DNA of 64,000 nt from Dictyostelium discoideum (taxonomy: Eukaryota): positions 1-64,000 of the forward strand of contig CM000152.2 in assembly GCA_000004695.1 (NCBI GenBank), written 5' to 3'. Below, piece by piece: positions 25,791 to 29,204 of the stretch. The notes under the pieces were generated by a model. It was not told the DNA's origin. It searched no databases and saw only the letters and a program-made list of their open reading frames with translations. The number at the start of each line of letters is the position of its first letter. Position 1 is the stretch's first letter. The position numbers and the translations under genes are program-made.

Positions 25791-27156
25791 GCTCCCATTA
25801 AATATTTCGTTTTTTTTAAAAAACAGCATTAAAGATAAAAGATTTTTAAAAAAAATCAAAATAGATAATAGTAATAATTTAGATGAAATAAATGAAAATT
25901 TATTTTATGGAAAGATTTGGAAGAACATAGTAATAAAAAATAAAATATTATCATTTTTAGAGATAAAGACATCTGGATTATTACCAAAATATAGAGGAAA
26001 AAAGATAAAATTAGTTAATGAACAATTAAATTTAAAGAATAGAGATTGTTTTAAACCCTTAATAAAAAACGATAGATATTTCAAATATGATGAAATATTT
26101 AATGTTTGTAGAATGCTATTATATGGTAATAAAGAATTATTTAGATATAAAGTGACAAGAAATGAAAAAGATTCACTCTATTTTCAAGATGGAGATATTA
26201 ATGTTATTCTTCAAAAATGTAAAGATCAAGATAAAGATTATAAATTGTTTCAAGATCTTTTTATTAATTATTTTCATTACTTCTTTCCAAATACTATCGA
26301 AACAAATAACCTCTTAAATTTGATTATCAAACATGATAATTTAATTGCTTTCAAAGTTTTTTTAACCATTATTAATCCAATCATTACAAAAAAAACAATA
26401 ATAGATGCAATTAAATTTGGTGCTGTTGATATTGTTACTCATCTTTCAAATAATAATAATAATAATAATAATAATAATAATAATAATAATAATAATAATA
26501 ATAATAATAATAATTATAATAATAGTAATAATAATAATTACATGTATCTAAGTGAAGATGATATTGTTAAATTATTAGAATTTATAATAAATAAAAACAA
26601 TTGTTTTGGTAGTGAAAAAGAAAATGATTGTTTTTTGATATTTTCTAATGATTCCATAAATGATTTTGGATTTAAACAAAATAATGATATTGATTTTAGT
26701 AATTTAAATATTATTAGATTTTTTAAACGTTCTATTGAATGTTTTAAAAAATTAAATATAAAAATACCAAATCAACTTTTAAACCCAATAAAATATTATA
26801 TATTTTCAGGATTTAATGAAAATGGTAGTCAACGTACTTCTTTACTCGATATTACATTGGAATTCTTAATTGAATTATATGAAGCAGTTCATTATTTATC
26901 ACCATTGTTTTTGGAATCACCAGCAGATCAAACTTACAAAAGTTGTTACCAATCAACTAATATGGTTTTATCAAATGAGGAATTTCAATCTATAAAGAAT
27001 TCATTCACAAAAATTGAATTAAAATCATTATTAAAAGATTTAGATTATTCTGATAAAATTGAAATATTATTTAGAAATGTTTCAATGGTTTCAAATATTA
27101 ATCCAAATGATTATAATTTAAAATATTGTAAAAATCAAATTTATTATTTAAAATAA
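25791..27156 (+). pseudogene. N-terminal half of a paralog of the 32996..35686 gene (disrupted copy)
   Basis: Frame open from 25791 (after TAG) to 27156. It aligns with residues about 10-430 of the intact paralog (KIWKNIVIKNKILSFLEIKTS, YGNKELFRYKV, IAFKVFL..., SMVSNINPNDY). There is no in-frame ATG until 26113 (MLLYGNKE), so the homologous start codon is lost. The sequence that follows is an inverted duplicated fragment. Confidence 0.6.
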
Positions 27157-27478
27157 TTGTATTAAAATCTTGAATTTCTTCTTTTGTAAAGTTTTTGTTT
27201 GATTCTGACATGGCATTTGTCACTTTTTCGAGACCAAATTCTTCTTCACCTATTCTTTCCAATAAATGATGATCAGGATCATAAAGATCTTGATAATTTC
27301 GATGATCACGTTCACCTGGATTATTAAAATAATCGATATCATTCAATGCTTTTGATAATTGATTTGAATGGAATAAATAACTGAATAATGTTTTATTCAG
27401 TGGTTGAATACATCTACCAGATTTTAAATCATAATCTCTATTTTCAAAAATCCATGCTAAAATCTCTGGATTTGATAA
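27155..27478 (-). repeat. inverted segmental duplication of 28420..28738 (about 320 bp, about 100% identity) inserted between the two gene halves
   Basis: The reverse complement of 27155-27478 equals the internal coding segment ...CIQPLNKTLFSYLFHSNQLSKALNDIDYFNNPGERDHRNYQDLYDPDHHLLERIGEEEFGLEKVTNAMSESNKNFTKEEIQDFNTI of the downstream fragment. The track ORF 27098..27346(-) reads it. Confidence 0.85.
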
Positions 27479-27482
27479 AAGG

Positions 27483-29204
27483 GAAATACATGGAGCAAAA
27501 GATATTTATTTATATCTTGGTCAAATTTATCAAAATTTAAATGATCATAGTAAAGATTTTAAAGTGGAAATATTAAGAAATTTAGAATTTATTATTAATT
27601 ATGGTGATTCATCTTTTTTAAAATCATTTTCTCAACAATTAATAAATGATATTGAAAACGTCAATAATAATAATAAAGAGGAATTTATTAGATCTATATT
27701 TTTTTTATTATTAGAAAATTTTGAATGTTTAAAGATGATTGTAAATCAATGTAAAGAAACAGATAGAGGTGGAGAATTTCTAAAAAGTAATATCCATATT
27801 TTTAAAAGGGTTAATTCAATCGAAACTTTTAATATTTTATATGGTTGTGAAATATTAAAATCACAATTTAAACTTGATGATTTATTCTATGGTTTTTATG
27901 ATATAAATGATAACGATCTTAATGAAATAGATGAAAGTGATGTAAGAGATCAATCCATATTACTATCAATATTAAATCATTTTAAAATAACATATCCAGA
28001 AGATTATAATAGAGAATCTATTAAATTAGATTTCATTGAAAATAAGAGACTCTTTTCAAACGATTTCATTTGTAATAATTATCAAGATTTTAAAGAGAAT
28101 ATTTTAAAATGTAATTTACCAATAGAAAATCAACAAATTATAAATAATAATAATAATAATAATAATAATAATAATAATAATAATAATAATAATAATAATA
28201 ATAATAATAATAATAATAATAATAATAATAATAATAATAATAATAATAATAATAATAATAATAATAATAATGGTTATTGGTCAACTTATTTTAGGGAAAT
28301 ATCTGAAATTGAAAATGTTAATATTGAAATTTCATTACACTTAAATTTAAATCAATTTATTTCAATTTTAGAATTAACTCCAGCTCAACAACAGTATAGT
28401 TGTTTATCAAATCCAGAGATTTTAGCATGGATTTTTGAAAATAGAGATTATGATTTAAAATCTGGTAGATGTATTCAACCACTGAATAAAACATTATTCA
28501 GTTATTTATTCCATTCAAATCAATTATCAAAAGCATTGAATGATATCGATTATTTTAATAATCCAGGTGAACGTGATCATCGAAATTATCAAGATCTTTA
28601 TGATCCTGATCATCATTTATTGGAAAGAATAGGTGAAGAAGAATTTGGTCTCGAAAAAGTGACAAATGCCATGTCAGAATCAAACAAAAACTTTACAAAA
28701 GAAGAAATTCAAGATTTTAATACAATTATTAAACTATCATTATTAATGAATGTCGATATAAATAATTTTATAAATACAATCATTAAATTTAATTTTTTAG
28801 ATGATTTAGAAATACTTTATCACTTTTTAAACAGCATTGGAAATTCAAAGAAATTTGGAAAGCAACTTTCACAATTAAAAGATATTATACTTTCATGTAT
28901 TGCAAATTATAATAGAATAAATTGTCTAAAACTATTGTGGAGATTAGATCAATACAACAAATCTTTCTTTGATGATAGACTCTTAACATCTATCTATAAA
29001 GAATTCAGAAAATCACGTTCTATGGTAATTCACGAAATTGAAAACATTTTAAGAAATCATTTCAAAAAAAAGATTCAAGATGAAGAGGAAGTGAATCAAG
29101 AAAGTGAAGATGACGAAAATGAAGGAGACAATGAAGAAAATAAAGACTACGAGGAAAATGAAAATGAAGATGAAGAAAATGAAGATGAAGAAGATGAAGA
29201 ATGA
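27483..29204 (+). pseudogene. C-terminal half of the same disrupted paralog (the track ORF 27564..29204 starts at a GTG)
   Basis: Frame open from about 27483 with no ATG at the homologous position. It aligns with residues about 440-896 of the intact paralog (DYNRESIKLDF, LSNDFICNNYQDFKENILKCN, GYWSTYF, ...ELTPAQQQYSCLSNPEILAWIFENRDYDLKSGRCIQPLNKTLF...). Acidic C-terminal tail. Confidence 0.6.

Follow-up and report, generated by a model that had tools for sequence, protein, structure and literature searches.

An apparently self-templated inverted insertion in a disrupted tandem paralog of laboratory Dictyostelium discoideum

A 64-kb stretch of Dictyostelium discoideum DNA (positions 1 to 64,000 of contig CM000152.2; hereafter the window, meaning the whole of that stretch) contains, at 25792-29204, a gene that stands beside an intact tandem paralog and has been split in two. 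Comparison with related genomes indicates, with little room for doubt, that the split was brought about by a derived, self-templated inverted insertion: a segment of the gene's own coding sequence was copied in reverse orientation into an upstream position within the same gene, which was thereby inactivated. Taken as a whole, the history that we judge likely is one in which an insertion of the template-switch type killed the gene and provided it with a pair of perfect inverted arms, through which the segment between them was later flipped.

Results

In the window the disrupted gene is represented by two open frames. The upstream frame, open from 25792, is closed by a TAA stop (27154-27156) two bases inside the inverted copy; the downstream frame is open from 27480, directly past that copy, and runs to a stop at 29202-29204. 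Both are collinear with the uninterrupted 896-codon open reading frame (ORF) of the paralog at 32996-35686, with amino-acid identities of 43% for the N-terminal part and 50-58% for the C-terminal part – an arrangement that the original prediction, made from this DNA alone, had correctly described in reading 25791-27156 and 27483-29204 as the two halves of the protein that the paralog keeps intact. When joined, the two frames amount to 1028 residues, and the N-terminal part is 86% identical to residues 3-430 of an intact 1028-residue orthologue from a wild isolate. The disrupted gene is without introns. Exact sequence look-ups with the 489-residue ORF of the C-terminal part and the 347-residue ORF of the N-terminal part matched no record. 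The window itself has a G+C content of about 22%; it contains long runs of A/T, and (AAT)n tracts in it code for poly-Asn.

A repeat search over the whole 64 kb returned a single long inverted repeat of complex sequence, with arms of 328 nt that are 100% complementary and lie 923 nt apart (Table 1); the other inverted pairs, which were not viewed one by one, fall within stretches rich in A/T and AAT, of a kind typical for this genome. The inverted segment had been predicted as one of about 320 bp: its arms proved to be perfect and its left-hand coordinates were close, whereas the right arm had been placed (28420-28738) 8-17 nt away from its actual position. Between TATTATTT (27142-27149) and AGGG (27480-27483) the window carries 330 nt, and at the same site wild genomes carry TAAA alone, giving a net insertion of 326 nt between TATTATTT and TAAAAGGG. 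The insert comprises two A's of uncertain origin (27150-27151) and 324 nt (27152-27475) copied without a difference, in reverse complement, from 28407-28730, a source 0.93-1.25 kb downstream within the gene itself. At the right junction there is a microhomology of 4 nt, TAAA in the target (27476-27479) against TTTA in the template (28403-28406), and it is because this target TAAA also matches the template that the repeat measures 328 rather than 324 nt. At the left junction there are the two extra A's, without clear microhomology. We found neither a target-site duplication at the insertion junctions nor terminal repeats or other termini belonging to the insert. Its length (326 mod 3 = 2) shifts the downstream part out of frame, and with it comes the TAA that closes the upstream frame.

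Table 1. Coordinates of the disrupted gene, its parts and its paralog in the window
Feature	Position	Strand	Remarks
N-terminal (5′) part	25792..27149	+	open frame; ancestral start expected just upstream of ATT at 25828, lost
Derived 326-nt insertion	27150..27475	-	wild isolates join 27142-27149 directly to 27476 onward
Left arm of perfect 328-nt inverted repeat	27152..27479	-	final 4 nt (27476-27479, TAAA) are target-site sequence that matches the source
Spacer, 923 nt, middle coding part	27480..28402	+	orientation in the window is the ancestral one; reversed in GCA_054883475.1
Right arm, source copy (X)	28403..28730	+	most conserved block of the family (LSNPEILAWIFENRDYDLKSGRCIQP...NDIDYFNNPGE...)
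Remaining 3′ coding part	28731..29204	+	acidic tail and stop codon
Gene-conversion tract	28346..28621	+	276 nt, 100% identical to paralog 34771-35046
Intact tandem paralog	32996..35686	+	896 codons; conversion partner at 34771-35046

The sequence of the left arm also identifies its source. It is 100% identical to the gene's own right arm, the segment that we call X, 96.6-97.6% identical to the X of wild isolates, and 99% identical to the paralog over 240 nt only. A match over the full 328 nt is thus found with the gene's own X alone, and it is this segment, not the paralog, that was copied.

The state of the locus before the insertion can be read from four wild isolates, whose orthologous loci (L006-L009) were found through members of the FKBP protein cluster. 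Two are D. discoideum (L006, ACTFIW; L007, ACTFIR) and two D. cf. discoideum (L008, ACTFIY; L009, ACTFIZ); by reference to Table 1 of PMC12745789 they are probably OT3A, CR116C, M4B and S6B, respectively. In every one the alignment to the window reaches 27153 and resumes at 27476, with nothing in between: TATTATTT runs directly into TAAAAGGGAAATAC, window position 27149 being joined to 27476 (the same junction may be written CAAATTTATTATTT-TAAA-AGGGAAATACATGG, or CAAATTTATTATTT-TAAA-AGGGAAATAC, with the in-frame translation NQIYYFKREIHGAKD). Each of the four has a single, sense copy of X, and the left arm of the window matches this copy alone, on the opposite strand. In L009 the gene is one intact ORF of 1028 codons (4430-7516; start MASIKDKRFLKKIKIDN), L008 is essentially the same, and other members of the gene family align across the junction without a comparable insert. 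An uninterrupted junction together with a single X in all four wild isolates shows that the gene was ancestrally one unbroken ORF (about 1028 codons), and that the inverted copy is derived, having been inserted in the lineage that gave rise to the laboratory strains descended from NC4. In this respect the proposal that the gene was recently disrupted by a duplicated, inverted piece of its own coding sequence is borne out.

The orthologues of the two wild D. discoideum isolates shift frame in or near an (AAT)n run (L006 at about 3002-3080, L007 at about 2604-2693), and that of L006 has a further change of frame at about 3700; both D. cf. discoideum isolates keep one frame. The shifts in L006 and L007 could be homopolymer or microsatellite errors in Nanopore-based assemblies, or could reflect real decay in D. 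discoideum.

A second lesion affects the beginning of the gene. All four wild isolates start with ATG GCA TC(C/T) ATT AAA GAT, and in the window the corresponding region reads AAAAAACAGC ATT AAA GAT, as it does in the second laboratory assembly introduced below. The lack of an ATG at the homologous start, already remarked upon in the original prediction, thus sets the window apart from its wild relatives; nor does the N-terminal part have an in-frame ATG upstream. The start codon was removed by small deletions. A lost start codon combined with the frameshift and stop introduced by the insertion marks the gene as a pseudogene in the laboratory lineage, and in all likelihood the disrupted copy has no function. 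Either the insertion or the loss of the ATG may have come first. For exon shuffling, the other process that had been suggested, we find no evidence: the gene has no introns, has lost its ATG and is a pseudogene.

The disrupted locus recurs in a second laboratory assembly. The intact paralog was located on contig CM142509.1 (6.43 Mb, about 104-127 kb) of GCA_054883475.1 (locus tag ACTFIT); the disrupted gene lies about 105 kb from one end of this contig, which we take to be chromosome 3. The project concerned, PRJNA1300491, consists of de novo Nanopore plus Illumina assemblies of AX2-214 and nine wild isolates (PMC12745789). When the matching locus (L001) was compared with the window by blastn and by exact comparison, one mismatch and a few indels were found in 22 kb, and GCA_054883475.1 is by all appearances AX2-214. 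The window for its part appears to be the AX4 reference or another NC4-derived genome: its ORF at 29765-30529 (minus strand) is identical to DDB_G0277931 (XP_642016.1, Q54Z36) of D. discoideum AX4, and the nearby FKBP, poly(ADP-ribose) glycohydrolase (PARG) and DDB_G0295839 proteins are identical to AX4 entries.

Window positions 22996-27479 correspond to L001 1-4484 with 100% identity, so that the junction between the N-terminal part and the inverted copy (27151/27152) is reproduced exactly. The two arms of L001 are 328/328 identical to each other and to those of the window, and the spacer is 923 nt in both assemblies. Its orientation is another matter: the match to window 27152-28730 is on the minus strand of L001 (5735-4157), a single mismatch being found in 1579 nt, and the two loci are collinear again from 28403 onward. 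The spacer of L001 is thus the reverse complement of that in the window, and it is the window that shares its orientation with all four wild isolates. The sole mismatch, at 27661, is T in the window (GTC, Val) and A in L001 (GAC, Asp), the wild isolates having Asp or Glu; the T would be either a derived mutation or a sequencing error. This difference in orientation had not been noticed in the original prediction, nor had the overlap between the duplicated segment and a tract shared with the paralog, to which we now turn.

Over 276 nt the disrupted gene and its paralog are identical at every position (276/276), and in the flanks identity falls to 28-76% in 50-nt windows. The tract extends 219 nt into the right arm, and these 219 nt of each arm are consequently identical to the intact paralog; the boundaries of tract and arm differ, which shows that separate events are recorded. 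Within the five genomes the two paralogs differ in the tract at 0, 3, 3, 5 and 2 sites, against up to 8-12 differing sites between orthologues of different genomes. Several variants are common to both copies within a genome and differ between genomes (e.g. 409/412, 384/394/431/484 and 547/577), a pattern that indicates concerted evolution of the tract by recurrent gene conversion; repeated homogenisation with the paralog in turn marks the copied stretch as recombinationally active. In each of the five genomes the tract ends at similar-looking boundaries, beyond which the flanks diverge sharply. This suggests either that the tract is a hotspot of conversion or that selection keeps the conserved core of the family identical.

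The family in question is, as far as the searches indicate, small and specific to Dictyostelium, the disrupted gene being a dead member beside its intact tandem paralog. In Pfam no family was matched by any member, and a phmmer search with the paralog against 1.84 billion representative proteins gave 9 matches in total. An AlphaFold2 model based on a six-sequence alignment was all-helical, with a mean predicted local distance difference test score (pLDDT) of 45.7, too poor for a fold search. No Rfam match was found within 25000-36500. The paralog is 896 residues long in the window, 894 in L006, 1008 in L007 (10602-14015), 725 in L008 (10583-12825) and 1003 in L009, and such wide variation between genomes indicates that the two-gene cluster is structurally labile. 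Two further loci, L002 and L003, were considered as the orthologous locus and rejected, for they represent a different tandem cluster of the family with about 70% nucleotide identity. This second cluster (L002 993-10954; L003 3833-11202) has three to four genes, again with about 70% nucleotide identity to the genes of the window, is situated on different large contigs in the wild isolates, and has some members that likewise look split or fragmentary (e.g. L002 8611-9973 plus 10001-10954).

Several observations concern the neighbourhood of the gene. A 1433-nt segment of the wild isolates (compare L007 6440-7872) is missing from the window at 30598/30599. Its loss appears to truncate DDB_G0277931, which has 255 residues in the window against 556-566 in wild D. 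discoideum isolates, and appears likewise to truncate a divergent AIG1-like GTPase (258 residues in the annotation of the AX2-like assembly against 479 in L007); on this comparison it represents a further degenerative lesion, specific to the lineage and no more than 2 kb from the disrupted gene. An exact look-up with the 255-residue neighbouring ORF matched the AX2-like assembly only. Immediately upstream of the disrupted gene, a 1181-residue ORF (21908-25453, plus strand) has matches to SWI2_SNF2 (PF18766), ResIII (PF04851) and PF22679, the last of which is a domain found in the R subunit of type I restriction enzymes. Such a helicase architecture looks bacterial in a eukaryotic setting, and the gene may have been horizontally acquired. 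In the public annotation of the AX2-like assembly the helicase is fused to the N-terminal part of the pseudogene (1464 residues, L001 1-4048); a chimeric ORF of 349 residues covers the flipped spacer (L001 4103-5152, minus strand), and a 263-residue C-terminal product, P0001, follows at L001 5396-6209. Together the three models cover window positions of about 22082-29204, and all three are likely annotation artefacts of a rearranged pseudogene.

Discussion

The junctions are the chief guide to how the inverted copy arose. While the DNA was being replicated or a break in it repaired, a 3′ end located at the target would have switched, by invasion or annealing, to the opposite strand at 28730, about 1.25 kb downstream, copied back some 324 nt to about 28407, and returned to its original template by way of the 4-nt microhomology TAAA/TTTA. 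An event of this class – a templated inverted insertion of the foldback kind or of that known as microhomology-mediated break-induced replication or fork stalling and template switching (MMBIR/FoSTeS) – would leave as its product the perfect 328-nt inverted repeat around a spacer of 923 nt. Homologous recombination between the arms would then be able to invert the spacer with every junction unchanged. A template switch had been raised as a possibility from the outset, and the 4-nt microhomology at one junction is what template-switch or microhomology-mediated repair predicts. We lean towards microhomology-mediated template switching over end-joining capture, the replicative nature of the event being read from the junctions.

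A number of points count against this account. Clear microhomology is present at one junction only, the other having two A's of uncertain origin, and end-joining capture of a copied fragment is for this reason inseparable from replicative template switching. The same two junctions could equally come from an event that also inverted the spacer: an arrangement with the spacer direct and one with the spacer inverted each need two switches, and either may have been primary. The orientations are those of two consensus assemblies and not of reads, so that an error of orientation is possible, more plausibly in the older assembly of short read length. The labels AX4 (window) and AX2-214 (GCA_054883475.1) are drawn from near-identity and from Table 1 of PMC12745789. 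Finally, the frame shifts in wild D. discoideum may mean that the gene was decaying before the insertion, or may be assembly errors.

How do other explanations fare? That the whole inverted copy is an artefact of assembly or cloning (a chimeric clone, say, or a read folded back on itself) would account for perfect identity of the arms, which is also to be expected from such an artefact. Yet the same 27151/27152 junction, the same 328-nt arms and the same spacer length of 923 nt are present in an independent de novo assembly built from long Nanopore reads together with Illumina data; mis-assembly, the danger that the original prediction had flagged, is effectively excluded by this agreement, and we regard it as exceedingly improbable. 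More improbable still is an origin from a mobile element, whether the element itself or a fragment that it transported. A gene-disrupting insertion measuring a few hundred bases would suit such an origin, but what was inserted is coding sequence from the gene itself, 100% identical over 324-328 nt to a stretch lying 0.9 kb off; the insert lacks terminal repeats and a target-site duplication, and within the window copies of it occur in two family genes only.

The orientation of the spacer leaves more room for disagreement. Because the arms are perfect, both orientations have the same junctions and the same k-mers, and only reads that span a whole arm distinguish between them; a real insertion with an assembly error of orientation in one of the two genomes, and no biological inversion, is accordingly an appreciable possibility, albeit the less favoured one. 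Against it, perfect inverted repeats of the order of 328 nt are standard substrates for homologous recombination. The two assemblies, moreover, differ at 27661 and by several indels, which points to independent DNA and independent data. A length of 328 nt can be spanned even by reads of Sanger length, and the second assembly was made de novo from long Nanopore reads that span the entire 1.6-kb structure (PMC12745789). The reliability to be expected of a long-read assembly at this locus and the ability of Sanger-length reads to span an arm speak for a genuine inversion, produced by homologous recombination of one arm with the other, and it is to this that we incline. A different question is which arrangement came first. 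The primary event may have been an inversion with duplication at one breakpoint, produced by a staggered break across X or by a two-step template switch, which gave the order of the AX2-like genome (the N-terminal part, followed by inverted X, inverted spacer and X); the window would then be a secondary flip back. The two novel junctions are exactly alike in both arrangements, either arrangement calls for two switches or joins, and the AX2-like order amounts to a simple inversion of spacer plus X with one extra X. Nothing discriminates between the two histories. The spacer of the window is oriented as in all four wild isolates, and a plain inverted insertion produces that orientation with no further step. 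We think an inversion-first history rather unlikely, and retain the inverted insertion, with a subsequent flip, as the preferred account.

The age of the insertion can be bracketed. Divergence of X between AX4 and the wild isolates is about 2.4-3.4%, and two arms of 328 nt that had been diverging since the split from those isolates should by now differ at about 8 sites or more, whereas they do not differ at all. The comparison indicates an insertion clearly younger than that split, in keeping with its absence from the wild isolates, and its presence in both laboratory-strain assemblies means that it predates their separation. The original prediction had gone further in calling the event very young. 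In relation to the wild isolates this holds; in absolute terms it does not follow, since arm-to-arm conversion, a process that accompanies flipping, could also have kept the arms identical.

For those who work with Dictyostelium there are practical consequences: AX2 and AX4 may differ by small inversions, and automated annotation yields chimeric gene models at this locus, which should be treated as a pseudogene. The locus reveals no new kind of biological system. Templated inverted insertion, repeat-mediated inversion and regions of ectopic conversion are each already known; this particular instance appears to be undescribed, as literature searches on the locus, including the neighbouring DDB_G identifiers, found nothing to match it. 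Its value lies in being a clean natural example, in which the allele from before the event (in four wild genomes), the base-level sequence of both junctions and a perfect inverted repeat are available together, and in which the next stage – inversion mediated by that repeat, between sister laboratory strains parted only decades ago – is possibly visible.

Hairpin-RNA loci that produce endogenous small interfering RNAs (siRNAs) are known to derive from inverted duplications of their targets, among them the Drosophila hairpin RNAs and the pseudogene hairpins of mouse oocytes. The resemblance here is a structural analogy only: coding sequence is duplicated in inverted orientation inside a transcription unit, and a read-through transcript would fold into a perfect duplex of 328 bp, 219 nt of which are 100% identical to the paralog. 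It is conceivable, if improbable, that the inverted self-copy turned a dying gene into a hairpin-RNA locus that silences the paralog or the wider family. A transcript running from a retained promoter through both arms would form the duplex in either orientation of the spacer; beyond the 219 nt identical to the paralog, the duplex would cover the most conserved block of the family; the Dicer and RNA-dependent RNA polymerase machinery of Dictyostelium could process it into siRNAs; and flipping together with conversion between the locus and the paralog would keep trigger and target matched.

The tract shared with the paralog resembles concerted evolution as it occurs among tandem paralogs elsewhere, in that 276 nt are identical between genes 6.4 kb apart and the flanks are sharply diverged. 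It departs from the usual case in being short and limited to the most conserved coding block, and in that the laboratory lineage has a third, inverted copy of most of it.

The insertion itself finds its closest counterparts in the MMBIR/FoSTeS class of mechanism (PMC2621351) and in the templated inverted insertions described at DNA breaks in yeast (PMC11724301). As in those events, the insert is an inverted copy whose template lies at a distance of about 1 kb along the same molecule; there is a 4-nt microhomology at one junction and a 2-nt addition or ambiguity at the other; and a non-recurrent, lineage-specific structural change has occurred with no target-site duplication. The scale differs, for at 326 nt the insert is much longer than the foldback insertions of yeast (5-34 nt) and much smaller than the copy number variants of human cases (kb to Mb). 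Unlike in those studies, the pre-event allele is at hand in wild relatives, and the replicative origin is deduced from junctions only.

Inversion of a segment flanked by repeats is likewise familiar, from the F8 intron-22 inversion and from the flip-flop of plastid genomes and of the yeast 2-micron plasmid. Compared with these systems the arms (328 nt) and the segment (923 nt) are small, no dedicated recombinase is implied, and the two states are known from two consensus assemblies alone. The parallels are these: a perfect inverted repeat flanks the segment, both orientations are encountered in two closely related genomes, and the sequences of the junctions are unaffected by the flip.

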